The notes below the pieces were generated by a model. It searched no databases, was not told the DNA's origin, and saw nothing but the letters and a program-made list of their open reading frames with translations. Shown piece after piece: positions 17,590 to 32,000 of a DNA stretch of 32,000 nucleotides; the first letter of the stretch is position 1; each line of letters starts with the position of its first letter. This DNA is from Cupriavidus necator (GTDB lineage Bacteria > Pseudomonadota > Gammaproteobacteria > Burkholderiales > Burkholderiaceae): assembly GCF_016127575.1 (NCBI RefSeq), contig NZ_CP066018.1, positions 1,500,001 through 1,532,000 of the forward strand, written 5' to 3'. Both the position numbers and the translations under genes were made by a program.

Positions 17590-18461
17590 GCGGCCCCCCG
17601 CAGCGAGGGCGCACGGGTGGAGACGCCGGCGGCGCGCGCGGTGTTTTCGATCTCTTCGACCAGCGGGGCGATGCGCGCCAGCTCGGCGCGGTTGTCGTCG
17701 TCCCACGGATGGAAGCCCGGGCGGAAGTAGCTGAGCCATTCCGGGATCATCTTGGGCAGCACGCCGGGCGAGGCCCACAAAAAGCGCAGCACGCCGCCAA
17801 ACCCGGTCAGCTTGTTGCGGCAGCCCTTGTCGCCCATCACCAGCGCGATGTGGAACACGAACACCATGGCCCAGAACGTCACCGTGGTGGTCAGCATGGT
17901 GAAGGTGCGCAGGAAGTAGCGGTAGGGGCCGGGCTTCATCACCGTGTTCCAGACATCGTAGGCCACGGCCTTGTGCTCGGTTTCTTCCAGTGCGTGCCAG
18001 GTCCACACCTGCCGGTAGCCGGTCTCAGAGGCCGCGCCCATGTGGCGCTGATCCTGCAGCAGGCCGCCGGCCAGCATCGCGGTGTAGTGCTCCAGCGCGA
18101 TGGTGTGGGCCAGCTGCCAGGACTTGGGCAGGATCTTGCGCAGCAGGTCCAGCAGCTTCCACACCGAGCGGTCCAGCGCCGCGGCGGGCAGGCCGGCGTC
18201 TTCCATCAGCCGGTTGTAGAGGATGTGCTCGCGCGTGTGCATCGCTTCCTGGCCGATAAAGCCGGCGATGGCGCGGCTCAGTCCGGGGTCTTTCACCTGG
18301 TCGCGGTAGTTGCGCACGCTGTCCATGAAGAAGCGCTCCCCGGCGGGGAAGAAGATCGACAGCGCGTTGATGAAATGGGTGACGTGACGGCCCCGTTCGT
18401 GCCAGTCGCTGATGCGTTCTGGCGGCAGGTGGGGATGCACGTCGCGGCGGACTGGCATCAT
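17586..18461 (-). CDS. Protein of the 'predicted metal-dependent hydrolase' type (PF10118-like, from memory), 291 aa, with a possible ferritin-like di-iron site
   Basis: ATG-ATG at 18461 is preceded by AAGGAGA, so I trimmed track ORF 17586-18674. The residues E42, E72xxH75, E124 and E160xxH163 are visible in the translation. A hydrophobic stretch occurs near residues 185-210. The gene is translationally coupled to the rubredoxin. Confidence 0.8.
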
Positions 18462-18508
18462 GGCGGTCTCCTTGGGTGACGGCCGGCGCGTGTTGCGCCG
18501 GCGGGGAT

Positions 18509-19471
18509 TTATTGGGCGGCCAGGAACGGCAGCAGGTCTGCTGCCACGCGTTGCGGGTCTTCTTCCATCGGCACATGGCCAAGCCCCGCGTAGCGGCGCA
18601 GCTGCGCGCCGGGGATGCGCTCGGTGAAGGCCTGCGCGTGCGCGGGCGGGATCCAGCGGTCGCGCTCGCCCCACAGCACCAGCGTGGGCGCGCGCACGCT
18701 GCCGAGCAGGTGGGTATCAAGCTGGGCAAAGTCGAGCCTGGGCACCATCTTGCCGACGGCCTCGCGGCTGCCTTCGGCGTAGAAGAAATCGACGTAGCGG
18801 CGGAAGGTGGACTCCGGCACGCGTGAAGCATCGCCATAGACGTCGCGCGTGGCGGCGCGGATGATGAACTCCGGCAGCATCCACGGTGCCGACCAGCGCA
18901 CCGGCGCATGGCGGAACAGGTCGATGTAGATCGGCAGCCGCATCTGGAAGCCGGCGGCGTCGATCAGCACCAGCTTGTCGACCGCATCGGGCCGGCGCAC
19001 CGCCAGGTCCCACCCGATCAGCCCGCCCAGCGAGTTGCCGATGATGCTGGCGCGGCGCACGTTCACCGCGGCCAGGAAGGCATCGATGAAGTCGCGGTAG
19101 CGGTGCACGTCCATGGTTTCGATGCGGCCGCGCGCATCGCGCAGCGGCCCGGTCAGCCCGAACGGGGCGAGGTCCAGCCGCAGCACGCGATAGCGCTGCG
19201 CCAGCGCCGGCACGATCCCCTGCCACGTATGCAGCGAAGCGCCGAAGCCGTGGATCAGCACCAGGGTCTCGCCGTCGGCGGGGCCTTCGTCGGTGTAGTG
19301 CACCATCGCATCCAGCACGCGCACCCAGCGCGAGGCCGGCAGCGCATGGCGCTGCGCCAGCGTGGCGCGCGACAGGCTGAACAGCCCTACGCGGCCCTGC
19401 CCGAACCAGCGCGTCAGCGCCCCCGGTGGCGCCAGCAGCGCAGCATCCTGTTCGATCGCGAGCCGGTTCAC
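18509..19471 (-). CDS. Alpha/beta-fold hydrolase (esterase/lipase-type), 320 aa
   Basis: The HG oxyanion motif (LVLIHGFGAS) and the nucleophile elbow GNSLGG (GxSxG) are present. A C-terminal His region reads YAGLGHVPMEE. The GTG start at 19471 overlaps the SDR stop (GTGA). Confidence 0.85.
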   Translation of the reverse strand: MNRLAIEQDAALLAPPGALTRWFGQGRVGLFSLSRATLAQRHALPASRWVRVLDAMVHYTDEGPADGETLVLIHGFGASLHTWQGIVPALAQRYRVLRLDLAPFGLTGPLRDARGRIETMDVHRYRDFIDAFLAAVNVRRASIIGNSLGGLIGWDLAVRRPDAVDKLVLIDAAGFQMRLPIYIDLFRHAPVRWSAPWMLPEFIIRAATRDVYGDASRVPESTFRRYVDFFYAEGSREAVGKMVPRLDFAQLDTHLLGSVRAPTLVLWGERDRWIPPAHAQAFTERIPGAQLRRYAGLGHVPMEEDPQRVAADLLPFLAAQ

Positions 19472-20358
19472 GGGCGCTCTCCCTGGCCGACCGAGGCCGG
19501 TGCGGCAACGGGGCCCAGATCGCGCTTGCGGCGCGTCTCGCGCACCACCAGCGACTGGTAGGCGGCGGGCAGCAGCCGCGCCATGGCATCGGCGGCGTAG
19601 GCGTCGGGTCCGATCAGCACGCGCCGGCGGTTGCGGCGCACGCCTTCCAGGATCACGCGCGCGGCCTTGTCGGGCGAGGTGATGAAGAATTTCTCGAACT
19701 CATCCTTGCCGTGCTGCGCGTCGCGCACCAGGAAGCCGTTGACGCTGGATGACACGCGGCTGGCCTGGGCGATATTAGTCTTGATGCCGCCCGGGTGCAC
19801 GGTGGTGGCCGACACGCCGCAGTCCATCAGGTCCAGCTCCTGCCGCAGCGATTCGGTGAAGCCGCGCACCGCGTACTTGCTGGCGTTGTAGGCGCCCATG
19901 CCGGGCTGGGCGAAGATGCCGAAGATGCTCGACGTATTGACCACGTGGCCGTCGCCGCTGGCCTTCAGGTACGGCAGGAAGGCCTTGGTGCCGTAGACCA
20001 CGCCCCAGAAGTTGATGCCCATGATCCATTCCAGGTCGTCGTAGCTCATGCCCTCGACGGTGCTGGACAGCGCCACGCCGGCGTTGTTGAAGATCAGGTT
20101 GATGCGGCCGTGGGCCTCGGCGGCCGCGGCGGCCCACGCGTAGACCGCGGCGCGGTCGGCCACATCCACGGTGTGCTGGGTGATGCGGGCCTGCGGTGCG
20201 GCGGCCATGGCCTGGGCCACGGTCTGCGCCAGCCCGGCCTCGTTGCGGTCTGACAGTGCCAGGTGGCAGCCCTGCCGTGCCAGCGCCACCGCCAGCGCGC
20301 GGCCGATGCCCGAGCCGGCGCCGGTGATCGCGGCAACCTTGTTGCGGAAGTCCTTCAT
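19468..20358 (-). CDS. Short-chain dehydrogenase/reductase (classical SDR), 296 aa
   Basis: Has the TGAGSGIG cofactor motif, NNAG, and the catalytic YNASK (YxxxK). The ATG at 20358 is preceded by AAGGAGA, so I trimmed track ORF 19468-20427. Confidence 0.9.
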   Translation of the reverse strand: MKDFRNKVAAITGAGSGIGRALAVALARQGCHLALSDRNEAGLAQTVAQAMAAAPQARITQHTVDVADRAAVYAWAAAAAEAHGRINLIFNNAGVALSSTVEGMSYDDLEWIMGINFWGVVYGTKAFLPYLKASGDGHVVNTSSIFGIFAQPGMGAYNASKYAVRGFTESLRQELDLMDCGVSATTVHPGGIKTNIAQASRVSSSVNGFLVRDAQHGKDEFEKFFITSPDKAARVILEGVRRNRRRVLIGPDAYAADAMARLLPAAYQSLVVRETRRKRDLGPVAAPASVGQGERP

Positions 20359-20419
20359 GTCCGGTCTCCTTCCGGTGATGTCGTTCTTTTGGGTGTGAAC
20401 CAGGGGGAATGCGTGTGCG

Positions 20420-21994
20420 TCAGGCACCGGCGACCGTGGCGATATCGGCCGGCCCGGGCTGCATTGCGGTCTCGTCCGGCAATGCGCGCCGCACCGGGTA
20501 CAGGTCGTAGTCGGTCATGCGGAAGCTGGCCGTGGCGCGGCGGAACTGCCAGGTGAAGCCCGGCCACAGCGTGGTGTTGCGGCCGCTGCGCGGGTCGATG
20601 TACCAGCTGGCGCAGCCGCCGGCGGACCAGATCGCATGGCCCAGCCGCGCCTGCAGCCGTTCGTTGAAGCGGCGCTGCACCGGCTCGCGCACGTCCACCG
20701 CCTGCACGCCTTCGCGGCGCATCTGCTGCAGGGCGTCCGCGATGTAGGCCACCTGCGACTCGATCATGAACACCATCGAGCTGTGGCCCAGGCCGGTATT
20801 GGGGCCGACCACGAAGAACAGGTTGGGGAAGCCCGCCACGGTGGTGCCCAGGTAGGCCTGCGCGCCGTCGCGCCAGGCATCGACCAGGTCCACGCCGTCA
20901 AGGCCGGAGATCACGCCGCGCGGCAGCGGGTCGGTGGCATGGAAGCCGGTACCCAGGATGATGCAGTCGGCGGGCCGGCGCGTGCCGTCGCGCAGCACGA
21001 CCGCGTCGCGCTCAACGCGGGCGATGCCGGTGGTGACCACGTCCACGTTGTCGCGTGTCAGCGCCGGGTAGTAGTCGTTGGAGATCAGCACGCGCTTGCA
21101 GCCGATGGTGTAGTCCGGCGTCAGCGTTGCGCGCAAGGCGGGGTCGCGCACCTGCCTGGCCAGATGGCGGCGTGCGACGCGCTCCACCACCTTCATGATC
21201 TTCGGATGCAGCACGAAGCCCAGCACGCGCGATTCCAGCATCCAGTAGATGCCGGTGCGCACCAGCGTCTGCGTGAACGGCAGGCGGCGGAACAGCCAGC
21301 GCTCGGTCGCGCTGACCTCGCGGTCCGGCTTGGGCATGATCCACGGCGGGGTGCGCTGGTACAGGTCCAGCTGCGCCACCTGGGGCGCGATCTGCGGCAC
21401 GAACTGGATCGCGCTGGCGCCGGTGCCGATCACCGCCACGCGCTTGCCAGCGAGCGCATAGGCGTGGTTCCAGTGCTGCGAGTGGAAGCACTCACCCTCG
21501 AACGAGTCCAGCCCCGGGATATTGGGGTAGGAAGGCCGGCTCAGCCCGCCCATGCCGGAGACCAGCACGCGCGCGCGCACCACCTTGCCGTCTGCCATCT
21601 CCAGGCGCCACACCTGCGCGGCCTCGTCCCAGGCGGCGTGGCGTAGTTCATGGTGCAGCCGCAGGTGCGGGCGCAGGCCGAAGCGGTCGGTGCAGCCTTC
21701 CAGGTAGGCGCGGATCTCCGGCTGGGTCGAGAACATGCGCGACCAGTCGGGGTTCGGCGCGAATGAAAAGGAATACAGGTGCGACTGCACATCGCAGGCG
21801 CAGCCCGGGTAGTGGTTGTCGCGCCAGGTGCCGCCGACGGAGCCGGCTTTCTCGAAGATCAGGAAGTTGCGCTCGCCGCGTTCGCGCAGCCGTATCGCCA
21901 TGCCGAGGCCGGCAAAGCCACTGCCGATGATGGCAATGTCTGTGTGCTCAAGGGCAGGGGATGCCTGCTGCGGCAGCTCCGCGGGTGCATTCAT
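20420..21994 (-). CDS. Type I Baeyer-Villiger / class B flavoprotein monooxygenase (EthA/AlmA-like), 524 aa
   Basis: The FAD Rossmann motif is IAIIGSGFAG, followed by GGTWRDNHYPGCACDV. The BVMO fingerprint FxGxxxHxxxW appears as FEGECFHSQHW (residues 165-175). The second Rossmann motif is VAVIGTGASA. A GAGGAG Shine-Dalgarno lies before the ATG at 21994. Confidence 0.9.
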   Translation of the reverse strand: MNAPAELPQQASPALEHTDIAIIGSGFAGLGMAIRLRERGERNFLIFEKAGSVGGTWRDNHYPGCACDVQSHLYSFSFAPNPDWSRMFSTQPEIRAYLEGCTDRFGLRPHLRLHHELRHAAWDEAAQVWRLEMADGKVVRARVLVSGMGGLSRPSYPNIPGLDSFEGECFHSQHWNHAYALAGKRVAVIGTGASAIQFVPQIAPQVAQLDLYQRTPPWIMPKPDREVSATERWLFRRLPFTQTLVRTGIYWMLESRVLGFVLHPKIMKVVERVARRHLARQVRDPALRATLTPDYTIGCKRVLISNDYYPALTRDNVDVVTTGIARVERDAVVLRDGTRRPADCIILGTGFHATDPLPRGVISGLDGVDLVDAWRDGAQAYLGTTVAGFPNLFFVVGPNTGLGHSSMVFMIESQVAYIADALQQMRREGVQAVDVREPVQRRFNERLQARLGHAIWSAGGCASWYIDPRSGRNTTLWPGFTWQFRRATASFRMTDYDLYPVRRALPDETAMQPGPADIATVAGA

Positions 21995-22250: not shown

Positions 22251-23324
22251 CTAGGCGGCCTGGCCCTTGCGGCGCCAGCCGTGCGGCGTTTCACCGGTCC
22301 AGCGCTTGAAGGCGTGGGTGAAGGCACTCTGCTCGGAATAGCCGAGCCGCATCGCGCACTGCGCCAGGCTGATGCCGGGATCGGCAAGATACTGCTCCGC
22401 CAGCGCGCGCCGCACGTTATCCACAAGCTGTGAATAACTGATGCCCTGCGCCTGCAGCCGCCGCTGCAGGGTGCGCACGGGCAGGCTCAGGTGCGCGGCC
22501 ACGTCGGCAATCGGCAGTTCGCCCTGCGGCAGCCGCCCGCTGATATAGGCACGCGCCTGCGCCAAGGCGTCGGCCCCGGCCGGCGCGATCTGCTGCAGCT
22601 GGGTATCGGCGATGCGCGTCATCTGCGCCTGCATGCCCGCGTCGGCCTGCAGCGACGGCAGGTCCAGCAAGGCCCGTTCGATATGCATGGCATGGCGCGC
22701 GGCGTTGAAGACCACGGGGCAGCCGAACACCTCGGCATGCAGGCGGGTATCAGCGGGCGCGGGATGCGGGAATTCCACCTGGGTGGCCACGTGCTGCTCA
22801 CCGATCAGCCAGCGCGCGAACACCACCCAGGTTGCCATGTGCAGCTCATGCGCATGGCGCGACAGCGGGCCATGCCGGGCTTCCCAGGTCATGCAGGCGG
22901 CATGCGGCGTTTCGATCAGGCGGGTGCCGCCGATATCGTTGGCCAGCACCTCATAGCGGATGCCTTGCAGGATGGCGTCGCGCACGGTGGGCGTGGTCAG
23001 CACCACGTAGCCCATCTCGGCATAGTGGCGCGGCGCGAAGGCGGCGCCGGCGCGCAGGCCGACATCGGGATCGCCGGTGACCTGCTCCAGCCAGTCGAGC
23101 AGGGCCAGGTAGGCGGCACCGGGAATGCGCGTGGCGGTCTGCGCACCGGTGGCATGCAGCAGCTCGGGCGGCACGCCGACGGCGCGCAGCTGTTCGGCCG
23201 GGGCAATGCCCTGGCGCGCGCCGTGGTCGAGCACGGCGCGGAGGTAGGCGAGCGAGACGGTGCCCAATGCGGTGCCCGCTTGCGTACCACTGGCACCGCC
23301 GTCGGGCTGGTTGGCGCGTGGCAT
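22251..23324 (-). CDS. AraC/XylS-family transcriptional regulator with an N-terminal ligand-binding domain, 357 aa
   Basis: The C-terminal double HTH reads IADVAAHLSLPVRTLQRRLQAQGISYSQLVDNVRRALAEQYL...LAQCAMRLGYSEQSAFTHAFKRWTGETP. The track start at 23327 is TTG, and I used the adjacent ATG at 23324. Confidence 0.9.
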   Translation of the reverse strand: MPRANQPDGGASGTQAGTALGTVSLAYLRAVLDHGARQGIAPAEQLRAVGVPPELLHATGAQTATRIPGAAYLALLDWLEQVTGDPDVGLRAGAAFAPRHYAEMGYVVLTTPTVRDAILQGIRYEVLANDIGGTRLIETPHAACMTWEARHGPLSRHAHELHMATWVVFARWLIGEQHVATQVEFPHPAPADTRLHAEVFGCPVVFNAARHAMHIERALLDLPSLQADAGMQAQMTRIADTQLQQIAPAGADALAQARAYISGRLPQGELPIADVAAHLSLPVRTLQRRLQAQGISYSQLVDNVRRALAEQYLADPGISLAQCAMRLGYSEQSAFTHAFKRWTGETPHGWRRKGQAA

Positions 23325-23439
23325 CAATTCACCTGTCGTGCGGGATCAAGACCGGGCACCGATCTTTATCCATACTCCGGGTAGCGTCAATGCGGGCCTG
23401 CCCCCGCCTGAATACAAGAGACCGACGCAAGGAGACAAC

Positions 23440-24045
23440 ATGGCCCCCAATCATCCACACCGCCGTGCGGATGCCGATGCCGAGGCGCTGCACGCGCTGA
23501 CGCGGCGCGGCTTCCTGAAAGTCGGCCTCGGCTTCTCGGCCGCGCTGGCCTGTACCGCGCTGGTGCCGTCGCTGGCCGGCTGCTCATCGGCCCATCCCGC
23601 GCCGCAGGCCGGCATGACCTGGCTGCGACCGGAAGACGTGGCGATGTTGCGCGCGCTGCTGCCGGCCATCGTCACCGAGCTGGCCGAAGCGCCGCCGCCG
23701 CGGCGCGCGGCCCTGGAGCAGGACGCGCTGCGCAATATCGACGCGACCTGCGCCGCGATGGGCGCGGGCGCGCAAGCCGAGCTGCGCAAGCTGTTCGGAC
23801 TGCTTGCCAGCATGCCGCTGCGCTGGGCGCTGACCGGCATCCGCCAGGACTGGAGCGCGGCCACGCCCACGCAGGTGCAGGCCTTCCTGGCGCGCTGGCG
23901 CGCCAGCCGCCTGGCCACGCTCAATGCCGGCGCGGTGGTGCTGGTCAAGCTCATCAGCGTGAGCTACTACGTGTTGCCGGCCGCATGGGCGGGCAGCGGC
24001 TATCCCGGCCCGAACGCGGCCGTCTACAAGGCGCTGCACGCCTGA
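23440..24045 (+). CDS. TAT-signal lipoprotein, the small subunit partner of a GMC flavoprotein (gluconate 2-dehydrogenase subunit-3-like), 201 aa
   Basis: The ATG at 23440 is preceded by AAGGAGA. A twin-arginine motif TRRGFLK is followed by a hydrophobic region and the lipobox LAGC. The gene lies immediately upstream of a signal-less GMC oxidoreductase. The family name is from memory. Confidence 0.7.
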   Translation: MAPNHPHRRADADAEALHALTRRGFLKVGLGFSAALACTALVPSLAGCSSAHPAPQAGMTWLRPEDVAMLRALLPAIVTELAEAPPPRRAALEQDALRNIDATCAAMGAGAQAELRKLFGLLASMPLRWALTGIRQDWSAATPTQVQAFLARWRASRLATLNAGAVVLVKLISVSYYVLPAAWAGSGYPGPNAAVYKALHA

Positions 24046-24053
24046 TCCCCGAC

Positions 24054-25649
24054 ATGGCCATCGACAATCTCTACGACGCCGGCATCGCCGCCGGCTGGAA
24101 GGTACTGGACGCTGCCACCTTCACCACCACGCGCACGCTCGATGCCGACGTCGTCATCGTCGGCAGCGGCGCGGGCGGCGGCATCAGCGCCGAGGCGCTC
24201 AGCCGCGCGGGCCTGCGCGTGGTGCTGCTGGAAGAGGGAGCGCTGCGCACCTCGGACAGCTTCCGCGACATGGACGAGAACCGCGCCTATCGCGAGCTGT
24301 ACCAGGAGGCCGCGGCCCGCACCACGGCCGACGGCGCCATCGCCATCCTGCAGGGCCGCTCCGTCGGCGGCAGCACCACGGTCAACTGGTCGTCGAGCTT
24401 CCGCACGCCGCCGCAGACGCTGGCGCACTGGGCCACGCATCACGCCGTCACCGGCCACAGCGAGGCCGACATGGCGCCGTGGTTCAGGAAAGTGGAAGAG
24501 CGCCTGGGCATCGCGCCATGGGCGATGGCGCCCAATCCCAACAACGACGTGCTCAAGCGCGGCTGCGAGACGCTGGGCTGGGAATGGCACGTGATCCCGC
24601 GCAATGTGAAGGGCTGCTGGAACTCCGGCTATTGCGGGCTGGGCTGCCCGGTCAATGCCAAGCAGTCGATGCTGGTATCGACCATCCCCGCGGCACTGGC
24701 CAGCGGTGCGACGCTGGTGCACCGCGTGCGTGTGCGCACGCTGGACCATGACGGCAAGCGCGTGCAGTCGGTCACCGGCGAGGCGCTGGGCGCCGATGGC
24801 TACACGCCCACCGGCGTCGGCGTGATCGTGCGGGCCAGGCACTTCATCGCCGCCGGCGGCGCCATCAACACGCCGGCGCTGCTGCTGCGCTCGCGCGTGC
24901 CGGACCCGCATGAGCGGCTGGGACTACGCACGTTTATCCATCCGGTGAATATCAGCATCGCAAAAATGCCGGAGCGCATTGATCCTTATTATGGCGCACC
25001 GCAGTCGATCGCTTCCGACCACTTCCAGTGGAAGGACGGTGCGACCGGGCCGATGGGCTACAAGCTGGAGGTGCCGCCGCTGTTCCCCGGCATCAGCGCG
25101 GGCGTGGTCAACGGCGTGGGCGAGGCACTGCGCCGCGACATGGCGCAACTGCCCCATACCAACGCCATGCTGGCATTGCTGCGCGACGGCTTCGTGCCAG
25201 AGAGCACGGGCGGGCGCGTGCGGCTGGCACCCGACGGCAGCCCGCTGCTGGACTATGAGATGAGCGACTACGCCTGGGACGGCGTGCGGCGCGCGTGGCT
25301 GAGCATGGCGCAGGCGCAGTTTGCCGCCGGCGCGGAGCGCGTGCGGCCCGCCCACCTGGACGCCGCCGAGTACCGCAGCTGGCCCGAGGCGCGCGACGCC
25401 ATCGCGCAACTGCCGCTCAAGCCTTTCCGCACCGCGCTGTTCACCGCGCACCTGATGGGCGGCTGCGGCATGAGCGACGATGCGCGCGGCGGCGTGGTGG
25501 ACAGCCATGGCAACCACCACCAGCTGGCCAACCTGTCGGTGTTCGACGGCTCGGTGTTCCCGACCAGCGTGGGGGCCAATCCCCAATTGTCGGTGTTCGC
25601 GCTGACGGCGCAGAATGCGCACGCGCTGGCACGGAGCCTCACGTCATGA
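24054..25649 (+). CDS. GMC-family FAD-dependent oxidoreductase, 531 aa
   Basis: The N-terminal FAD motif is DADVVIVGSGAGGGISAEALSRAGLRVVLLEEG. The C-terminal GMC-type block is HLMGGCGMSDDARGGVVDSHGNHHQLANLSVFDGSVFPTSVGANPQ. I used the ATG at 24054 within track ORF 23985-25649. No signal peptide is present. Confidence 0.9.
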   Translation: MAIDNLYDAGIAAGWKVLDAATFTTTRTLDADVVIVGSGAGGGISAEALSRAGLRVVLLEEGALRTSDSFRDMDENRAYRELYQEAAARTTADGAIAILQGRSVGGSTTVNWSSSFRTPPQTLAHWATHHAVTGHSEADMAPWFRKVEERLGIAPWAMAPNPNNDVLKRGCETLGWEWHVIPRNVKGCWNSGYCGLGCPVNAKQSMLVSTIPAALASGATLVHRVRVRTLDHDGKRVQSVTGEALGADGYTPTGVGVIVRARHFIAAGGAINTPALLLRSRVPDPHERLGLRTFIHPVNISIAKMPERIDPYYGAPQSIASDHFQWKDGATGPMGYKLEVPPLFPGISAGVVNGVGEALRRDMAQLPHTNAMLALLRDGFVPESTGGRVRLAPDGSPLLDYEMSDYAWDGVRRAWLSMAQAQFAAGAERVRPAHLDAAEYRSWPEARDAIAQLPLKPFRTALFTAHLMGGCGMSDDARGGVVDSHGNHHQLANLSVFDGSVFPTSVGANPQLSVFALTAQNAHALARSLTS

Positions 25650-25715: not shown

Positions 25716-25869
25716 TTGCCGGCGACATTGTTGTGCGATTCCCCACACCAGTGGCGCAATTAGAATGCCCACTCCAATTCAGGTCTTGTGAAACGCTCGA
25801 AGCGGTGGATAGGCTTCGTACAGCTGTTTCAAGCATCCGTATGCCGTCAGAGCAGGGAGCGGAACAGCG

Positions 25870-25882
25870 TAGCAAATTGCTA
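25870..25882. promoter_or_regulatory. 13-bp palindrome TAGCAA-A-TTGCTA, a candidate TetR operator
   Basis: The arms are perfect 6-bp repeats. The palindrome lies about 36 nt upstream of the TetR-family gene ATG. Position and symmetry are the only evidence. Confidence 0.3.
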
Positions 25883-25917: not shown

Positions 25918-26892
25918 ATGAAGACCGGCAAAAGCTCGGCAGGAGACACCAAGGCCCGGATTCTCGACGCCACGGAAAAGTTGTTTACCGAGGTCGGCTA
26001 TGAAGCCACCTCGCTCAGGCAGGTCACGTCGCGCGCCATCGTCAACCTGGCCGCCGTGAACTACCACTTCCGCAGCAAAGATATCATGATGCACGCCGTG
26101 CTGAGCCGGCGGCTGGATCCGCTCAACGCGCGGCGCCTGGCGCTGCTCGATGCGTGCGAAGCGCGCTGGCCCGGCAACAGCATCCGCTGCGAGCACGTGA
26201 TGGGTGCGCTGTTCGTGCCCGCGCTGCAAATGGCACGCGACCCGTCGGTGGGCGGGCCGTCGTTCCTGCGGCTGCTCGGGCGCGTGTATTCGGATACCTC
26301 GCCCTTTATCCAGCAATACCTGCTGGAGCACTACGCCCCGGTGTACGGGCGCTTCTTCGACGCCTTCTCGCGCGCCATTCCGGCGCTGCCGCGGCATGAG
26401 CTCGGCTGGCGCCTGCAGTTTGCGCTCAAGGCGCTGGCCGGCGTGCTGGCCGGCGAAGAGCTCACCAACCTGCTGCCCGCGTTCACGCAGGGCCGGCAGA
26501 TGAGCGATGCGCACGTGCTGGCCCAGCTCACCGCCATGGTGGAAGCCGTGCTGAACGTGGCGCAACCCAGTGCGGACGACTTCTCGGCCCTGCAGTCGGT
26601 GTTCGAGCTTGGCGAGCAGCAGCAGGCCAGGGAGCGCGCCAGCAGGCTGGCCGCGGCGCGGTCTGCCGATGAACTGAGTGCCAGTTGCGCCGCGATGGCG
26701 GCAACCATGGGCGATGCGGCCAGCCAGACCGCCGCCGCCCTCGGCAAGGCCCGCATCAGCGCACGCACCGTGCGCAATGAGGGCACCAAACGCTCAGCCG
26801 TGACCAGCATGCCGGTCCGCGCGCGCGAGCAAACCGTGAGCTTCCCCAGCAACCCGCTGGATGACTGGATGCGAATGCGCACCAGGACATAG
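25918..26892 (+). CDS. TetR/AcrR-family transcriptional regulator with a long C-terminal extension, 324 aa
   Basis: The N-terminal HTH is TKARILDATEKLFTEVGYEATSLRQVTSRAIVNLAAVNYHFRSKD. About 100 Ala/Ser/Arg-rich extra residues follow the usual TetR length. Confidence 0.9.
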   Translation: MKTGKSSAGDTKARILDATEKLFTEVGYEATSLRQVTSRAIVNLAAVNYHFRSKDIMMHAVLSRRLDPLNARRLALLDACEARWPGNSIRCEHVMGALFVPALQMARDPSVGGPSFLRLLGRVYSDTSPFIQQYLLEHYAPVYGRFFDAFSRAIPALPRHELGWRLQFALKALAGVLAGEELTNLLPAFTQGRQMSDAHVLAQLTAMVEAVLNVAQPSADDFSALQSVFELGEQQQARERASRLAAARSADELSASCAAMAATMGDAASQTAAALGKARISARTVRNEGTKRSAVTSMPVRAREQTVSFPSNPLDDWMRMRTRT

Positions 26893-27098
26893 CGGCGCGC
26901 GCCGCACCCGGTTACCGCCGGGCCGGCGCCACCGCCCTCACGCAAAAACTGAACCGTCGATCCATCCAGCGAGGCCACGCACAGGCCCCGCGGACCCCGT
27001 GCGCCTTATCGGATTTTCCAAGGGCGCGGCGGTGGCCCCGTTCGCCCTGCGCTGCCCGCGCTCCGCCTCCTGGCGGACATCTTGAGGAGGAAGCTGCC

Positions 27099-27995
27099 AT
27101 GTCGATCCAACCGCTTTACCTTGCCGCCGTCGCCGGTGCCGTCATCGGACTGCTGGCTGCGCCACTGGCCATGCCCCCGGTGGCCATGGCCCAGACGGCC
27201 ACAACCACCGCCGCCGCGGGCACGGGCTATGACGGCCAGACATCCGCACAGCAAGCCGCACTGTTCTCGCGCCAGGTCGCCAGCGGCGAACTCGCGCGGC
27301 TGTCCGATGAGCAGGTGCTGGCCGTGTTCCAGGCGCTGCAGCCGGACGCGCTGCTGAAATGGGCCCGTGCCGAGATGAACCGCTATCCCGAGTACGAGTA
27401 CTGGATGTCGCGCCAGGAACGGCTCAACAACCAGTGGCAGGACCAGCCCGCCAGGATGCAGATCCGCTACCGCCACCAGCCGCGCCAGCTCTATGCCAAG
27501 TGGCTGCCCGGCGGCGCGCAGTCGGGACAGGAAATCATCTACGACGAGACCCGCCGCAAGGACGAGATGTACGGCCACCTGGGCGGCGTGCTGGGCTTCA
27601 CCTCGATGTGGATTGCGCTGGACGGCACGCTGGCGCGCTCGCAGTCCAACCACACCGTGCGCGACCTGGGCTTCCAGTTCGTGCTGTCGATGCTGGAGCG
27701 CGACGCCAGGTCCCTGCGTGCCGCCGGCCTGTCCGAGAAGTACAGCAAGGCCGAGATCGTGCAGGAGCAGGGCGTGCGCATGGTGGCGCTGACCTGGGAC
27801 CTGCCGGCCGGCGCGCCGCAGTACTACGCCAAGAAGGTGCAGCTGATGCTGGACCTGAAGCATCCGTATATCCGCGTGGAAACCGCCTGGGATGCCGACG
27901 GCAACATGGTCGAGAAGATCGTGTTCGACAAGCTGGTGCGCAAGACCTTCGAGGCCTCGGCGTTCGATCCGGCCAATCCTGACTATCGCTTCTGA
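27099..27995 (+). CDS. Secreted protein, DUF1571-like (family assignment from memory), 298 aa
   Basis: A GAGGAGG Shine-Dalgarno precedes the start, and GC3 codon bias is strong. The Sec signal peptide ends in AMA-Q. The mature part reads ...MQIRYRHQPRQLYAKWLPGG...EIIYDE...RKDEMYGH...DPANPDYRF. The gene is real with high confidence, but the family name is only moderately supported. Confidence 0.75.
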   Translation: MSIQPLYLAAVAGAVIGLLAAPLAMPPVAMAQTATTTAAAGTGYDGQTSAQQAALFSRQVASGELARLSDEQVLAVFQALQPDALLKWARAEMNRYPEYEYWMSRQERLNNQWQDQPARMQIRYRHQPRQLYAKWLPGGAQSGQEIIYDETRRKDEMYGHLGGVLGFTSMWIALDGTLARSQSNHTVRDLGFQFVLSMLERDARSLRAAGLSEKYSKAEIVQEQGVRMVALTWDLPAGAPQYYAKKVQLMLDLKHPYIRVETAWDADGNMVEKIVFDKLVRKTFEASAFDPANPDYRF

Positions 27996-27998
27996 GAT

Positions 27999-28053
27999 GC
28001 GGCAAAGCGGCGCGCACCGTGCGTTTGAATCGGTGGCTGCGCCGCTTTGCCGC
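27999..28053 (+). other. Long perfect stem-loop (15-bp arms) immediately after the DUF1571-like gene
   Basis: GCGGCAAAGCGGCGC (27999-28013) pairs with GCGCCGCTTTGCCGC (28039-28053). An inner 5-bp extension pairs CACCG with CGGTG (28015-28019 / 28031-28035). The structure starts 4 nt after the stop codon and has no U-tract. Confidence 0.5.
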
Positions 28054-28246
28054 GCAGTCCGTGCAACACCCGCAATCCACCGCCACGTGCGGCATGCACG
28101 CCAGGCGCGCCTGTTTGGAACGGCCGCTCTATTGACGCAAAAACACGCGAGCGGCGAGAGTCGCCGCACCCGGGAGGGATCCGGCCGCAGAGCCGGACAC
28201 CAGATCCAGAACCAGGGGTCGCCAAGAAAAAATCAGGAGACAGGCA

Positions 28247-29599
28247 ATGACCATGTCGATGCTTCGACGCAGCACTTTGGTTTTGACAGGGGTGAGCCTT
28301 GCCGCGGCGCTGGCCGGCTGCGGTGGCGGCGGCGGCGATGAAGAGGCGCCGCGCGCCGGCACGCAGGCACCGCAATGCGCTGACACGGGCACGTGCCCCG
28401 CGCAGGGGCCGGTCACCATCGGCGGCCCGCCGGGGTCGTTGTGCCCGGCGGCACTGGACTACAGCACCACCTTCACCGGCGGCTCCGGCGCGGGCGAACT
28501 GGTGAAGCTGCGCTTCGACACCGCGGCCCGCACCTACCAGCTGGAGATCATCGAGTCGCCGGTGCCCAAGCAACCCGGCAGCGTCAGCCCGACGCGCGCG
28601 GGCGTGACTTTCACCGGCACCTTCGCCAACCTGACCTCGCTGCCGACCGCCGAGCAGAACCGCTGCGCAGTCGCGCTGCAGACGGCCACCGCATCCGACG
28701 GCACCTCGCAGGCCAATATCGACAGCGCCAGGCCGCCGGTGATCTTCCTGGGCAATGGCGTTGCCGGCGGCGGCATCCCCGGTGCCACCATCTCCTATCC
28801 GGGCGTGCTCGGGCTGGGTGCGATCCCGGCCACCACGTTCCCGTTCTACCCGGTGCTGGCATTCGCACAGACCGAGACCGACTTCACCAGGGTGGCCGGC
28901 AGCTACAACCTGCTGGGCTACCACCAGGTGCCGTCCGGCGGCTCGCTGACTTCGTCGAGCCACTTCACGCCCGCGACCGCGCAGACCACCGAGACGCTGA
29001 ACGCCGACGGCAGCTGCACGGCCGCGGCCGGCAGCTGCCTCAGCACCGGCAACAGCTGGAAGCTGCGCAGCGCCGATGGCGCCTTCGAAAGCAGCAATGC
29101 CGATGGCAGCCGCCGTTACCCGTCGTTCCAGAGTGCGGCCATCACCAGCAACAACGCCAGCCGCGCCAAGGGGCTGATGGTGGTGGGCAAGCTCAACGGC
29201 GCACTGGTGCCGCTGCTGGTGCGCACCGGCTACGCGCAGATCTCGCTGCTGCCACTGACGGTCAATGTCGACGACGAATCGGGCCTGGCACTGATGGCGC
29301 CGGCGAAGGCACTGGCCAGCGGCCAGCTTGACGGCGGCTATATCGGCTCGGGCAGCGACTTTGTCTACACCGCCTCGCTGGTCAAGGGCACGCGCGTGGA
29401 GCTGCTGGACCCGATGACGATGAACCAGACCGGTGCCTTCCAGCTCGACTTCACGCAGAACGCGCCGGGAATGATCGCCACCACCGACAACAGCGGCACC
29501 ACCGGTGCGCTGATTGCCAGCGGGCGCGTGTTCAGCCACCTGTCCGGCACCGGCAGCGCCAGCCCGACCTTCCGCGTCGGCGTGCTGGCAGCACCCTGA
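28247..29599 (+). CDS. Lipoprotein of unknown function, paralog A (possibly DUF2957-like, from memory), 450 aa
   Basis: An AGGAGA Shine-Dalgarno precedes the start. The signal peptide has the lipobox LAGC (Cys25) followed by a GGGGGDEE linker. GC3 bias is strong. The protein aligns along its full length with the next gene. Confidence 0.85.
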   Translation: MTMSMLRRSTLVLTGVSLAAALAGCGGGGGDEEAPRAGTQAPQCADTGTCPAQGPVTIGGPPGSLCPAALDYSTTFTGGSGAGELVKLRFDTAARTYQLEIIESPVPKQPGSVSPTRAGVTFTGTFANLTSLPTAEQNRCAVALQTATASDGTSQANIDSARPPVIFLGNGVAGGGIPGATISYPGVLGLGAIPATTFPFYPVLAFAQTETDFTRVAGSYNLLGYHQVPSGGSLTSSSHFTPATAQTTETLNADGSCTAAAGSCLSTGNSWKLRSADGAFESSNADGSRRYPSFQSAAITSNNASRAKGLMVVGKLNGALVPLLVRTGYAQISLLPLTVNVDDESGLALMAPAKALASGQLDGGYIGSGSDFVYTASLVKGTRVELLDPMTMNQTGAFQLDFTQNAPGMIATTDNSGTTGALIASGRVFSHLSGTGSASPTFRVGVLAAP

Positions 29600-29636
29600 G
29601 TCCACCAAGAACACACAAAACCGAGGAGACCACGCC

Positions 29637-30917
29637 ATGCAACCCCTTCGACTGATCCTGCCGCGGGCCTCGCGCCCATCCACGGTGCCGGCGCGTGCGC
29701 TGGCCGTGGCCGCCACCGCCATGCTCGCCGCCTGCGGTGGCGGCGGCGGCGACGACGCGCCGTCCACGCCGGCCGCGGTGCAGACGCGGCTGTGCCCGGC
29801 AGCGCTCGACTACTCCACCACCTTTACCGGCGGCACCGGCTCCGGCGAGCTGGTGAAGGTGCAGATCGACACCACCAAAAAGACCTGGCAGGTGACCTTC
29901 GTGGACTCGTCGGTGCCGCGCCAGACCGGCACCGTGCAGCCCACGCGCAGCGATCCCACCAACGGGCAGAACGTGATGCGCGGCACGCTGAAGGCGGAGA
30001 CGGGGTTGCCGACCGAGAAGCTCAACCAGTGCGCGTTCGAGCTGAGCGGCGCCAGCCTCGATCCGAACCGTCCGGCCAAGCTCTTCGTCGGCGAAGGCGT
30101 GGTGGGCGGCACCATCCCGGGCGCGCGCATCCAGTTCAACGGCGTGCTGGGCGCCGGCGCGGTGCCGGACACCACCTTCCCGTATTTCCAGTTCATCGGC
30201 TTCGCGCAGACCGAGACCGACCTGTCGAAGATTGCCGGCCAGTACAACGGCACGGGCTTCCACGAGGTGCCGTCCAAGCAGTTCCAGCTGGTGGCGCAGG
30301 ACTACCGCATGGCGCTGGCTGCCGATGGTTCCTTCACCGTCTGCGACAACGCCACCAACACGTGCGAGCGCAAGGGCAACAACTTCGTGCCGCAGGCGAG
30401 CGGCGCGCTGCTGTCGACCAACTACAAGGCCGAGAGCCAGCCGCCCACGCTGGGCGGCACGCTGGGCAAGGCCTACCTGATCGTGGGCAAGCTGCGCGGC
30501 CAGCTGGTGCCGGTCATGATCCGCGTGGGCTATGCCAATGACTCGCTCGCCAACGGCCCGCTTGGTGCCGACGACGAGATCGGCATCGGCATGATGGCGC
30601 CGGCGGTAGCGCTTACTGAAGGCACGGTCAACGGCGAATACGTCGGCGTGGACAGCAACTTCAACTACCGCGTGACGGCACTGGTCGGCGCCGCGGCCAC
30701 CATGATGGATCCGTTCCGGCCGCATGATGCCTCGCTCGCCATCCCGTACCGGCTGGATTTCTCGCAGCAGGTGCCGGGCGTGGTCCGCACGTCGCGGCGC
30801 GATGCGCCTGCAGGCTCGGCGCCGACCGGCAAGCTGATGTTCACCGGCGGCGTGTTCGGCTTCCTGGAACAGCGCGACAGCGGCCCGTACTTCACCGTCG
30901 GCGCATTCGTGCAGTAA
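29637..30917 (+). CDS. Lipoprotein of unknown function, paralog B, 426 aa
   Basis: The ATG at 29637 is preceded by GAGGAGA, so I trimmed track ORF 29514-30917. The lipobox is LAAC (Cys33), followed by GGGGGDD. Blocks shared with paralog A include LCPAALDYSTTFTGG, GELVK, FAQTETD and VGKLxGxLVP. Confidence 0.85.
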   Translation: MQPLRLILPRASRPSTVPARALAVAATAMLAACGGGGGDDAPSTPAAVQTRLCPAALDYSTTFTGGTGSGELVKVQIDTTKKTWQVTFVDSSVPRQTGTVQPTRSDPTNGQNVMRGTLKAETGLPTEKLNQCAFELSGASLDPNRPAKLFVGEGVVGGTIPGARIQFNGVLGAGAVPDTTFPYFQFIGFAQTETDLSKIAGQYNGTGFHEVPSKQFQLVAQDYRMALAADGSFTVCDNATNTCERKGNNFVPQASGALLSTNYKAESQPPTLGGTLGKAYLIVGKLRGQLVPVMIRVGYANDSLANGPLGADDEIGIGMMAPAVALTEGTVNGEYVGVDSNFNYRVTALVGAAATMMDPFRPHDASLAIPYRLDFSQQVPGVVRTSRRDAPAGSAPTGKLMFTGGVFGFLEQRDSGPYFTVGAFVQ

Positions 30918-30929
30918 GCACGCTGCCAG

Positions 30930-30958
30930 GCCCGGGCCATTGCAGCCCGGGCCACTGC
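30930..30958 (+). repeat. Tandem 14-nt direct repeat GCCCGGGCCA(T/C)TGC, two copies, upstream of the OmpW-family gene
   Basis: The copies are at 30930-30943 and 30945-30958 and differ at one position. Each contains the palindrome GGCCCGGGCC or most of it. Confidence 0.4.
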
Positions 30959-31003
30959 GCCACGATCCGACCATACAGAGACATCCACTGCCGGGGACAC
31001 AAG

Positions 31004-31843
31004 ATGAAAACCATACGCCTCACGCTCACACTGATGCTGGCCGCGCTGGCCAGCTTCGCCCTGCCTGCCCACGCCCAGAAGAAGGGCGACAACGTGGTAT
31101 CCGCGGGCTGGTTCCATATCCAGACCCACGGCCAGAGCGCTCCGCTGACTACCACCTTGCTCGACGTGCCGATCAACTACCCGCTCGGGCTGCCGTCCAG
31201 CTTCACCGCACCGGGCAGCAGCATCTCGTCATCCAACGCCAATACGCTGGGGCTGACCTTCAGCCACTTCGTCTCCGACCATATCGCGATCACCGCGGTG
31301 GGCGGCATCCCGCCGGAGTTCAAGCTCTACGGCCACGGCGAACTGATCCCGCCCGGCCCGGCCGGAGCGCTCGGGCGCCAGAGCCTGGGCGATCCGTCGC
31401 TGAACCCCATCGTCACCAAGGCACGCCAGTGGAGCCCGGCGGCGATGGTGCAGTACCACTTCCTGGATCCGGGCACGCGCTTCCGCCCGTTCCTGGGGTT
31501 GGGGGTGTCGTACAACTTTTTTACCAACATCGAGGTCAATCCGGCGTTTGCGAGCTCGGTCAACAACAACCTCGGCGCGATCCTGGCGGCGGGGGCGGGC
31601 ATCCCAGGTCCGACTTCGGTGAGTGCGGATGCGTCGTCGTCATGGGCGCCCGTGTTCAATATCGGCGGCACCTACAACTTCGACGAGCATTGGGGGCTGA
31701 CGGCGGCGGTGACTTATATCCCGCTGAAGACGACGTCGACGATGACGATCAAGGCGGCCGACGGGACCGTGCTGTCGACCTCGAAGACCAAGCTGGAGCC
31801 GAATCCGCTGGTGTTCTTCCTGGCGGCTTCGTACAAGTTCTGA
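31004..31843 (+). CDS. OmpW/AlkL-family outer-membrane beta-barrel protein, 279 aa
   Basis: The signal peptide ends in AHA-Q. OmpW-like blocks are present (FRPFLGLGVSYNFF and HWGLTAAVTYIPLKTT). The C-terminal beta-signal is LVFFLAASYKF. The protein is longer than E. coli OmpW because of loop insertions. Confidence 0.88.
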   Translation: MKTIRLTLTLMLAALASFALPAHAQKKGDNVVSAGWFHIQTHGQSAPLTTTLLDVPINYPLGLPSSFTAPGSSISSSNANTLGLTFSHFVSDHIAITAVGGIPPEFKLYGHGELIPPGPAGALGRQSLGDPSLNPIVTKARQWSPAAMVQYHFLDPGTRFRPFLGLGVSYNFFTNIEVNPAFASSVNNNLGAILAAGAGIPGPTSVSADASSSWAPVFNIGGTYNFDEHWGLTAAVTYIPLKTTSTMTIKAADGTVLSTSKTKLEPNPLVFFLAASYKF

Positions 31844-31852
31844 CGCTGAAAG

Positions 31853-31886
31853 AAAAAAACGACGCGCCTGAGCGCGTCGTTTTTTA
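31853..31886. terminator. Bidirectional intrinsic terminator after the OmpW-family gene
   Basis: The sequence is AAAAAAACGACGCGC-CTGA-GCGCGTCGTTTTTTAT. It forms a 9-bp GC-rich stem (31859-31867 / 31872-31880) extended by A/T pairing. Confidence 0.85.
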
Positions 31887-31911
31887 TTGCTGCAACGGCA
31901 AGCGGCAACCT

Positions 31912-32000
31912 TTACTGCGTCACCGTCCCCGGTTGCGCAGGCGTCGCCTGCTGCGCCACCGGACTGTTCTCCTGCAAGCCACCGCCCAGCGACCGGTACA
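31912..32000 (-). CDS. C-terminal 28 codons of a convergent gene, possibly an efflux outer-membrane factor lipoprotein (NodT/OprM-type); 5' part outside the window
   Basis: Manual reverse translation gives ...YRSLGGGLQENSPVAQQATPAQPGTVTQ*. The Y(K/R)xLGGGW-like motif near the C-terminus is typical of OMF proteins. The fragment is very short, so this is weakly supported. Confidence 0.4.
   Translation of the reverse strand, partial: YRSLGGGLQENSPVAQQATPAQPGTVTQ

Follow-up and report, generated by a model that had tools for sequence, protein, structure and literature searches.

The question raised by this locus is whether five consecutive genes of Cupriavidus necator, encoding a TetR-family regulator, a DUF1571 protein, two DUF2957 lipoproteins (Lpp1 and Lpp2) and an OmpW/AlkL-family barrel protein, make up one envelope module, and what such a module would handle. 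The genes lie in a window of 32,000 nt (NZ_CP066018.1, positions 1,500,001–1,532,000; assembly GCF_016127575.1), and window positions are used throughout. A preliminary description of this DNA had read them as a single system for capturing and shuttling hydrophobic substrates. That reading holds only in part, since the five genes do not form a single conserved module. The explanation that we favour, and to which we give about an even chance of being right, is an envelope route for hydrophobic carbon sources, in which an OmpW channel and two capturing lipoproteins would be combined with a periplasmic carrier that delivers to FadD and with an acyl-responsive repressor.

All five genes and their coordinates were confirmed, and Pfam profiles confirmed the families named for them earlier (Table 1). 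Export signals were read by eye from the translations; a signal peptide or a lipobox is present in each of the four co-directional genes that follow the regulator, as claimed earlier, and the block 25918–31886 indeed holds neither an enzyme nor an inner-membrane transporter. The window proteins are 92–98% identical to proteins of C. alkaliphilus, C. taiwanensis and Cupriavidus sp. UYPR2.512. The parts are of known structural kinds (an OmpW/AlkL barrel, a LolA fold, a TetR regulator and possibly a TbpB-like fold), and their assemblies are undescribed in the literature searched. The lack of a functional description noted before holds as well: that literature is nearly empty for both families, DUF1571 being absent from it and DUF2957 appearing only as an entry in a table of vaccine candidates, and a search combining Slam or surface lipoproteins with Burkholderia did not find a system of this type.

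Conservation divides the block in two. From species-representative genomes we gathered 80 loci that encode relatives of DUF2957, and every window protein was mapped to these loci. Lpp1, Lpp2 and OmpW are present, adjacent and co-directional in every one of these loci, which come from Cupriavidus, Ralstonia, Paraburkholderia, Burkholderia and Caballeronia. The TetR gene lies upstream of this trio in 31 loci and the DUF1571 gene in 28, exclusively of Cupriavidus type; neither was found within 10 kb of the trio in any of the 49 non-Cupriavidus loci, even at E 1e-3. The core conserved unit is DUF2957–DUF2957–OmpW, not five genes. The synteny check across homologues from the Burkholderiales that had been proposed thus came out positive for the trio and negative for TetR and DUF1571, whose linkage to it is confined to Cupriavidus. 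The trio's neighbours in Ralstonia are rpoD and dnaG, and in Burkholderia and Paraburkholderia they are semialdehyde-dehydrogenase-like, flavodoxin, PEBP, MFS and malic enzyme genes. A single further locus, found separately in a divergent assembly (GCA_031450975.1, locus L091, 6001–13932), extends the trio: 18 bp beyond its genes for two DUF2957 proteins (643 and 413 aa) and OmpW (276 aa) lies one for a tannase-like esterase of 816 aa, itself a DUF6351 lipoprotein with a Cys-Gly-Gly-Gly tether (LVGC-GGGSGS), and next comes an MFS transporter gene.

The genomic context of DUF1571 elsewhere points to fatty-acid catabolism. We examined seven DUF1571 proteins from other genera and metagenomes. A FadD-like AMP-binding acyl-CoA synthetase (579–604 aa) is encoded immediately upstream of DUF1571 in all seven, with gaps of 1–133 bp; a short-chain dehydrogenase/reductase (SDR), a MaoC hydratase and a thiolase precede FadD in five, and a long acyl-CoA dehydrogenase (ACAD) lies further upstream wherever the locus extends far enough. 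An OmpW paralogue follows DUF1571 in two of the seven contexts. The complete Ralstonia unit reads TetR(TetR_C_30)–ACAD–SDR–MaoC–thiolase–FadD–DUF1571–OmpW, its last product being a 302-aa paralogue with 48% identity to the window OmpW, and the Burkholderia unit reads TetR–FadD–DUF1571. FadD–DUF1571 of Paraburkholderia acidisoli (L086) follows a Baeyer–Villiger monooxygenase (BVMO), an SDR, a PF10118 hydrolase and two alpha/beta hydrolases. In Cupriavidus the genes run TetR–DUF1571–(two lipoproteins)–OmpW, an order that parallels TetR–(enzymes)–DUF1571–OmpW of Ralstonia. The suspected tie to the catabolism of hydrophobic or lipid compounds is borne out by these operons, most of which encode beta-oxidation.

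The regulator leads in the same direction. Its top NCBIfam match is PsrA (127 bits, under the equivalog cutoff of 300), and its top sequence match in the PDB is 2FBQ (E 5e-29), which we take to be PA3006 (PsrA) of Pseudomonas aeruginosa, a repressor of fadBA5 that responds to long-chain fatty acids. Identity is 69% to the TetR protein that heads the Ralstonia beta-oxidation–FadD–DUF1571–OmpW operon and 54% to the one upstream of FadD–DUF1571 in Burkholderia; judged from these alignments, the window protein is the orthologue of the regulator that heads such operons. Its best reading is that of a PsrA-like, acyl-responsive repressor, in line with the lipophilic-ligand type proposed in the preliminary description. 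The FadD and beta-oxidation contexts, together with this PsrA-like regulator, therefore mark TetR and DUF1571 as components of a system for fatty-acid activation and beta-oxidation. The regulator also carries an Ala/Ser-rich C-terminal tail of ∼ 95 aa (residues ∼ 230–324, 26605–26892), unusual for the family, which ends in FPSNPLDDW; a similar tail in the Ralstonia orthologue (355 aa) closes with FPANPMRPW, and a short terminal motif thus seems to be conserved between the two genera.

Upstream of the TetR gene, the blocks at 25785–25835 (Table 1) vary little or not at all when the window is aligned with 16 Cupriavidus loci, and an inverted repeat, TGAAAC / GTTTCA, lies on both sides of the promoter region. 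The Ralstonia orthologue has an analogous upstream pair, TTCAAACG ... CGTTTGAATCG. These blocks probably represent the promoter and operator of the TetR gene. The palindrome at 25870–25882, which had been put forward as the operator, was rejected in that role. It lies outside the conserved upstream region, and it is probably not a conserved operator because only the three closest strains (L001, L003 and L004, among 31 Cupriavidus loci) keep it.

The trio appears to have a promoter of its own. Gaps of 206 bp and 251 bp separate TetR from DUF1571 and DUF1571 from Lpp1. The first of these intergenic regions holds no block conserved across the genus. The second contains a block (28112–28162) that is invariant across the Cupriavidus loci that keep this region, and analogous blocks are found in Burkholderia and Paraburkholderia (GTTT(G/C)AATCG...TCAATTGACAG) and in Ralstonia (...TATTGACC); it is the putative promoter of the trio, conserved across genera. 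Directly 3′ of the DUF1571 stop codon lies a strong hairpin without a U tract (27999–28053), which carries a conserved GTTTGAAT motif (28023–28030) in its loop. At this position other Cupriavidus genomes have two direct copies of GTTTGAA(T/C), ∼ 33–35 bp apart. The hairpin could be a transcript-stabilizing structure, an attenuator or a protein-binding site. Conserved block, long gap and hairpin together argue that the trio is a self-standing unit and not the tail of a five-gene operon. The arrangement is different in Cupriavidus sp. NPDC089707 (L011, 8479–8509), where hairpin and promoter block have been lost and 27 bp separate DUF1571 from Lpp1, which suggests that co-transcription of DUF1571 with the trio, or read-through, is tolerated in that strain. 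A second, GC-rich hairpin lies between Lpp2 and ompW.

A consensus promoter scan gave no sigma-70 match. The strong terminator said to close the block is real: its 14-bp stem has a folding free energy of −21.2 kcal/mol (z −4.9), and none of 200 shuffled sequences folds as well. An A run precedes the stem and a U run follows it, so the terminator should act in both directions, and it is common to ompW and a convergent resistance–nodulation–division (RND) efflux operon. The consensus terminator scanner missed it because the A and U runs extend the stem.

One upstream motif links the two halves of the block. The sequence CGTTTGAATC(G) is found upstream of the PsrA-like TetR gene in Ralstonia (L090), with an inverted TTCAAACG ∼ 36 bp away, and upstream of the TetR gene in Burkholderia (L084, L083); the form upstream of the Cupriavidus TetR gene is TGAAACG...CTGTTTCA. 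The same sequence lies 77–97 bp upstream of Lpp1 in the sampled Burkholderia and Paraburkholderia loci and ∼ 165–225 bp upstream in Cupriavidus. Written as CGTTTSAATC, the motif is thus shared by the upstream regions of the TetR gene (Burkholderia, Ralstonia) and of Lpp1 (Burkholderia, Paraburkholderia, Cupriavidus). Its core GTTT(G/C)AA was present upstream of Lpp1 in 31/31 Burkholderia-group and 25/32 Cupriavidus regions, against a background of 4.7% of 260-bp windows. The shared motif and half-sites that resemble the PsrA box suggest that the PsrA-like repressor has the trio in its regulon, also where a long distance separates the genes, a suggestion that falls short of proof.

These data bear on the simplest alternative, namely that the block has no functional unity and that TetR–DUF1571 is the remnant of a broken beta-oxidation operon beside an unrelated trio, with OmpW paralogy as the sole common feature. 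We consider this improbable. It accounts well for the absence of TetR and DUF1571 near the trio in all 49 non-Cupriavidus loci, for the loss of DUF1571 from three Cupriavidus loci, for the poor conservation of the TetR–DUF1571 intergenic region and for the strong hairpin and separate promoter that split DUF1571 from the trio. However, the arrangement is stable within Cupriavidus, where TetR is kept in 31 loci and DUF1571 in 28, and it reproduces the Ralstonia order TetR ... DUF1571–OmpW; moreover, DUF1571 is fused to the transcription unit of the trio in L011, and the upstream motif is common to both halves.

The DUF1571 protein (signal peptide cleavage between PPVAMA and Q) gave an AlphaFold2 (AF2) model with a pLDDT of 83.7. 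A Foldseek search of the PDB with this model returned 98 matches at E ≤ 1e-3, all of the LolA type (top E 2.8e-7, TM score ≤ 0.69). They include LolA from many species, LolA–LolB, RseB/MucB, LprG, VioE, DUF1329 and ependymin; the matches to LolA, LolB, RseB, LprG, VioE and DUF1329 have a probability of 1.0 and E values of 1e-7 to 1e-5. The DUF1571 profile had no match among PDB sequences, and the fold search alone was informative. The model therefore agrees with the earlier grouping of DUF1571 with LolA/LolB-type proteins and makes it a candidate periplasmic carrier of hydrophobic cargo.

The two lipoproteins, which share 43% identity, have lipoboxes LAGC (Lpp1) and LAAC (Lpp2), each followed by GGGGGD. 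Residue +2 is glycine, since Gly5-Asp directly follows the lipobox cysteine in both, and the non-Asp +2 residue and Gly5 tether read earlier are correct. The lipobox and Cys-Gly-Gly motif are kept in nearly all Lpp1 orthologues. For Lpp2 we take the ATG at 29637, preceded by GAGGAGA, as the start; TTG 29514, given by the mechanical open reading frame list, was rejected. The family is small, with 102 representatives at 50% clustering among 1.84 billion proteins, many of them fragments.

The AF2 model of Lpp2 is all-beta (pLDDT 77, pTM 0.77) and was built from a shallow alignment of 24 sequences. Its Foldseek match to TbpB (E 4.6e-5, probability 1.0, ∼ 420 aligned columns), overlooked in the preliminary description, has a global TM score of only 0.2–0.25, a value expected if the domains of the predicted fold are oriented differently. 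LbpB, HphA, fHbp and PmSLP make up nearly all other high-probability matches, and there is a weak match to a fatty-acid-binding protein (FABP). Sequence-level searches gave no corresponding signal. Pfam at E ≤ 10 on 24 DUF2957 members found DUF2957 only and no TbpB_B_D, distant representatives of the family likewise matched DUF2957 only, and the DUF2957 profile run against PDB sequences at E ≤ 10 had a sole match, 7mbz (E 0.046), a chance match covering the signal peptide and tether only. An approximate hhalign comparison with an fHbp sequence gave a probability of 0.2%. We therefore do not file DUF2957 in the TbpB family; that it works or looks like a TbpB-type lipoprotein is a lead suggested by the model, one that we regard as somewhat probable.

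Two further features of Lpp2 were noted. Residues 153–191 (30093–30209) align with the C-terminal 39 residues, 388–426 (30798–30914), in the pattern GG..PG..I.F.G..G......PYF..G.F.Q. A search for internal duplication in DUF2957, comparing N- and C-terminal halves with hhalign, gave a probability below 1%, and the same 39-residue segment pair recurred in it; the pair may be the trace of a barrel-hairpin duplication. Besides the lipidated cysteine, Cys53 and Cys132 (∼ 29793 and ∼ 30030) are invariant in 24 DUF2957 sequences from both paralogues, which suggests a structural disulfide and is consistent with an extracytoplasmic location.

Neither a Slam (DUF560) gene nor a TonB-dependent receptor gene was found within 10 kb in the 80 trio loci, where no gene beyond the trio itself is conserved and the identified neighbours are housekeeping or catabolic. 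The lack of a nearby Slam gene that could flip the lipoproteins outward is one argument for an alternative in which the trio acts in outer-membrane lipid or envelope homeostasis, or in export, with periplasm-facing, lipocalin-like lipoproteins beneath the OmpW barrel. The near-universal presence of the trio in one family and its housekeeping contexts fit this proposal, as do the adjoining convergent RND efflux operon of Cupriavidus and the resemblance of the eight-stranded barrels of surface lipoproteins to lipocalin and FABP barrels, together with the weak FABP match. We nevertheless give it a low probability. No Mla, Pqi or Lpt-type partners are found nearby, DUF1571 is tied to FadD and beta-oxidation and hence to the catabolic direction, and the RND operon, which is convergent and comes with an AcrR-like regulator of its own, does not occur in the other genera.

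The barrel protein has a signal peptide ending in LPAHA, followed by QKK, and a C-terminus ...ASYKF. AlkL is its top sequence match in the PDB (E 1.5e-11), ahead of OmpW (8e-9) and OprG (2e-5), and the assignment to the OmpW/AlkL family stands. Barrels of this family are small-molecule channels tied to small hydrophobic molecules and their passage, and the AlkL gene is part of an operon for alkane degradation. Solved members are eight-stranded, with a hydrophobic lumen and a lateral opening, and the window protein probably shares these features. OmpW proteins of the Burkholderia trios are 57–59% identical to it.

Among them is BCAL0198 of B. cenocepacia, which with BCAL0199 and BCAL0200 forms an orthologous trio (BCAL0200-BCAL0199-BCAL0198; PMC10303873, table 3). 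A B. cenocepacia OmpW that is 100% identical to BCAL0198 is a lung-cell attachment factor and protective antigen (PMC10224339, PMC7996558), and BCAL0198 has been studied alone in these roles, without its lipoprotein partners. The preliminary description had held that homologues tied to a different process would count against it, and this has come true in part, for the link of BCAL0198 to host-cell attachment and protective immunity. A ‘toxic small RNA’ has been reported downstream of BCAL0198 (PMC4603805); when the whole window was scanned with Rfam at gathering thresholds, neither this RNA nor any RNA family was detected. Two other leads were followed. C. metallidurans ompW1 (Rmet_3526), which has a strong transcription start site, is not an orthologue of the trio gene, because its neighbour Rmet_3527 is classed under amino-acid metabolism, and the proteome supplements for C. 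necator H16 contain no entries for the inferred locus tags H16_A3732–A3737.

It is conceivable, then, that the trio acts chiefly as an adhesin or antigen complex at the surface, serving attachment to a host or an abiotic surface or binding a macromolecular ligand, and that the proximity of TetR and DUF1571 in Cupriavidus is incidental. The attachment and antigen data on the orthologous trio BCAL0198–0200 (PMC10224339, PMC7996558, PMC10303873) speak for this, as do the specific fold matches of DUF2957, all of which are surface lipoproteins that bind host proteins or heme, and the trio's own promoter and housekeeping neighbourhoods outside Cupriavidus. We judge it distinctly unlikely. The trio is kept in non-pathogenic soil- and plant-associated Cupriavidus, Paraburkholderia and Caballeronia, OmpW/AlkL barrels are established as small-molecule channels, and for a surface protein that is abundant, attachment can be secondary. 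The motif shared with the promoters of PsrA-like TetR genes, the Ralstonia DUF1571–OmpW pair and the esterase and MFS transporter of L091 point instead to nutrient uptake.

Table 1. Features of the locus and its surroundings (window positions).
Feature	Position	Strand	Details
TetR regulator	25918–26892	+	324 aa; TetR_N E 6e-12, TetR_C_30 E 5e-22 (Pfam)
DUF1571 protein	27099–27995	+	298 aa; PF07608, E 8e-58, 195.7 bits (cutoff 27), full profile length
Lipoprotein 1 (Lpp1)	28247–29599	+	450 aa; DUF2957 (PF11170), E 2e-144, 481 bits (cutoff 25)
Lipoprotein 2 (Lpp2)	29637–30917	+	426 aa; DUF2957 (PF11170), E 2e-160, 531 bits (cutoff 25)
OmpW/AlkL-family barrel protein	31004–31843	+	279 aa; PF03922, 63.1 bits (cutoff 24)
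TetR-gene upstream region	25785–25835	+	CTTGTGAAACG 25785–25795 (including -35-like TTGTGA), 18 nt, TAGGCT 25810–25815, CTGTTTCAAGCA 25824–25835
Palindrome TAGCAA-A-TTGCTA	25870–25882		1 match in window, 0.37 expected by chance
Hairpin directly 3′ of DUF1571 stop	27999–28053	+	−41.7 kcal/mol, z −4.9; no U tract
Trio upstream block	28112–28162	+	TGTTTGGAACG 28112–28122, N9, -35-like TTGACG 28132–28137, then conserved GGCGAGAGTC
GC-rich hairpin between Lpp2 and ompW	30929–30953	+	about −22 to −25 kcal/mol, z −2.1
Intrinsic terminator	31854–31885		A7, CGACGCGC, loop CUGA, GCGCGUCG, U6
PF10118 metal hydrolase	17586–18674	-	Pfam
Alpha/beta hydrolase	18509–19471	-	Pfam
SDR	19468–20427	-	Pfam
BVMO	20420–21994	-	Pfam
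AraC regulator	22251–23327	-	top NCBIfam matches GliR, QhpR, CypR, all under cutoff
Small lipoprotein, Tat signal	23437–24045	+	twin-arginine motif TRRGFLK, lipobox LAGC; no Pfam match
Glucose–methanol–choline (GMC) oxidoreductase	23985–25649	+	Pfam; start overlapped by small lipoprotein gene
RND efflux operon	31887–32000; L002:12326–19650	convergent to ompW	outer-membrane factor, AcrB-type pump, membrane-fusion protein

Oxidative catabolic genes adjoin the block. The window BVMO, SDR, alpha/beta hydrolase and PF10118 hydrolase (17.6–22.0 kb) resemble the set that precedes FadD–DUF1571 in P. acidisoli; the AraC regulator gene stands in divergent context to this operon. The small Tat protein and the GMC oxidoreductase look like a Tat-exported periplasmic dehydrogenase with its small subunit. 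Among the 31 Cupriavidus-type loci, tblastn recovered the small protein in 26, the GMC oxidoreductase in 27 and the AraC regulator in 18, and open reading frame clustering placed the BVMO cluster in 26. The AraC and BVMO genes correspond to H16_A3739 and H16_A3740 in C. necator H16 (PMC11388446). By gene numbering, the ‘lipase’ H16_A3742 is assigned to the alpha/beta hydrolase of the BVMO operon; H16_A3742 has been reported in palm-oil transcriptomes (PMC4870535, citing Brigham et al. 2010; PMC11388446). The BVMO–SDR–esterase operon, the GMC oxidoreductase with its Tat protein and the esterase and MFS genes of L091 all agree with an envelope route for hydrophobic carbon sources.

Other neighbours touch the block less closely. 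The RND efflux operon, with a divergent AcrR-like TetR gene (TetR_C_2), is kept in Cupriavidus only. The replication origin is near the window genes, with dnaA, dnaN and gyrB at 7.8–13.9 kb and rnpA and yidC at 14.7–17.3 kb. Adjoining gyrB, dnaN and dnaA, a type I restriction-modification block occupies the minus strand at 425–7513 (hsdR 425–3745, hsdS 3745–5013, hsdM 5006–7513), and the GC content dips to 0.53 at 4–5 kb and 7–8 kb, compared with 0.60–0.70 elsewhere in the window; the block has the look of an insertion gained by horizontal transfer in the origin region.

We therefore return to the envelope route and to how it might work. Two joined sub-modules, the trio and TetR–DUF1571, would both serve the entry of long-chain hydrophobic carbon sources, candidate substrates being fatty acids together with the acids or alcohols that arise when ketones, esters or alkanes are oxidized. 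The OmpW/AlkL-type barrel would let small hydrophobic molecules bypass the lipopolysaccharide layer. The two Gly-tethered lipoproteins, with their TbpB/HphA-like predicted folds, would be ligand-capturing partners of the barrel, which could sit at the cell surface, as TbpB does, or face the periplasm. DUF1571 would shield the cargo on its way from the outer to the inner membrane, at which FadD forms acyl-CoA. The PsrA-like TetR would keep its own promoter shut down, and probably that of the trio too, until an acyl ligand accumulates. We favour this route because the trio is conserved, its barrel belongs to the OmpW/AlkL family, DUF1571 is predicted to have a LolA fold and is encoded with FadD, and the TetR regulator is orthologous to those of beta-oxidation operons. 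The BVMO set of P. acidisoli, the shared CGTTTSAATC motif, the DUF1571–trio arrangement of L011, the esterase and MFS genes of L091 and the palm-oil report on H16_A3742 add to it. A more specific version, in which the DUF2957 pair is surface-exposed independently of Slam and docked on the OmpW barrel as a TonB-independent ‘bipartite receptor’, with DUF1571 carrying fatty acids through the periplasm to FadD, is rather unlikely in this complete form.

Several observations weigh against the route. The window holds no FadD gene, three Cupriavidus loci without DUF1571 keep the trio, and beyond Cupriavidus the surroundings of the trio are housekeeping genes, lipid genes being absent from its vicinity. 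Experiments on an orthologue are limited to BCAL0198, and they concern adhesion and immunity and not transport (PMC10224339, PMC7996558). The fold match of DUF2957 combines a low global TM score and a 24-sequence alignment with a lack of support at the sequence level. GTTT(G/C)AA occurs in only two of 11 Ralstonia trio promoters; the motif pattern was defined post hoc, and the loci compared are related by descent and hence non-independent.

It has long been an open question how long-chain fatty acids and other strongly hydrophobic substrates get from an outer-membrane channel through the periplasm to FadD. A protein with a LolA fold, encoded right after FadD in beta-oxidation operons of the Burkholderiaceae, would be a concrete and testable candidate for the carrier. 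To our knowledge, TbpB-type surface lipoproteins occur only with Slam translocons and TonB-dependent receptors; if our reading of the trio is right, a pair of TbpB-like folds on an OmpW-type barrel, with no Slam gene nearby, would widen the biology both of surface lipoproteins and of OmpW/AlkL proteins. Among the vaccine antigens of Burkholderia, OmpW (BCAL0198; BpOmpW in B. pseudomallei) holds a leading place. Its two conserved operon partners have been ignored, and these lipoproteins may be co-exposed antigens or shape the display of OmpW. AlkL-type channels are used in whole-cell biocatalysis for better uptake of hydrophobic substrates, and C. necator is an industrial host for growth on oils and fatty acids, so that accessory uptake factors would be of practical use. 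Two domains of unknown function thereby become testable candidates, DUF1571 for periplasmic fatty-acid carriage and DUF2957 for Slam-independent, TbpB-like partners of OmpW.

The closest relatives of each component differ from it in telling ways. The window TetR resembles PsrA of P. aeruginosa in having a TetR_C_30 domain and in its orthologues, which head beta-oxidation operons. The window half-sites GAAAC and GTTTC are also like those of the PsrA box, (G/C)AAAC-N2-4-GTTT(G/C), whose half-sites are 2–4 bp apart, whereas in Cupriavidus and Ralstonia they are ∼ 30 bp apart and flank the promoter. The regulator scores under the cutoff of the PsrA equivalog, as given above, and 2FBQ has no counterpart of its C-terminal tail. 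DUF1571 shares with the LolA/LolB/LprG/RseB/DUF1329 superfamily the predicted unclosed beta-barrel and predicted export. It adds an N-terminal four-helix bundle (residues 49–94), and its context is FadD and beta-oxidation, whereas that of LolA and RseB is LolCDE or the sigma-E pathway.

The trio barrel has in common with E. coli OmpW (2F1T), P. putida AlkL (6QWR/6QAM) and P. aeruginosa OprG (2X27) the sequence match, a signal peptide and a C-terminal phenylalanine. These classical members are ∼ 60 residues shorter than the window protein, a long-loop subtype whose extra residues fall in alignment gaps. The trio gene also differs from theirs in that it always follows two DUF2957 lipoprotein genes; we know of no such lipoprotein partner for OmpW, AlkL or OprG.

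The DUF2957 proteins, in turn, are compared with TbpB, LbpB, HphA, fHbp and PmSLP, Slam-dependent surface lipoproteins built of handle and eight-stranded-barrel domains, which the predicted fold of Lpp2 may resemble. Our own strand count from the model, ∼ 4+8+5+8, would be compatible with two handle-plus-barrel lobes. A lipobox and a Gly-rich tether are common to both groups (neisserial TbpB and fHbp start C-(L/S)(G/S)GGGG), as is an adjacent gene for an integral outer-membrane protein. DUF2957 differs in lacking sequence similarity to the TbpB family and a TbpB_B_D match. Whereas TbpB/TbpA, LbpB/LbpA and HpuA/HpuB depend on Slam and a TonB-dependent receptor, the partner here would be a passive eight-stranded barrel, with two paralogous lipoproteins in place of one.

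As a whole, the proposed logic is that of vectorial acylation by FadL–FadD of E. coli, in which an outer-membrane channel with a lateral exit is followed by FadD, the constant neighbour of DUF1571. We know of no periplasmic carrier for the E. coli system. FadL is a barrel of 14 strands compared with the eight of OmpW-type proteins, and the Cupriavidus route would add a LolA-like periplasmic protein and two lipoproteins.

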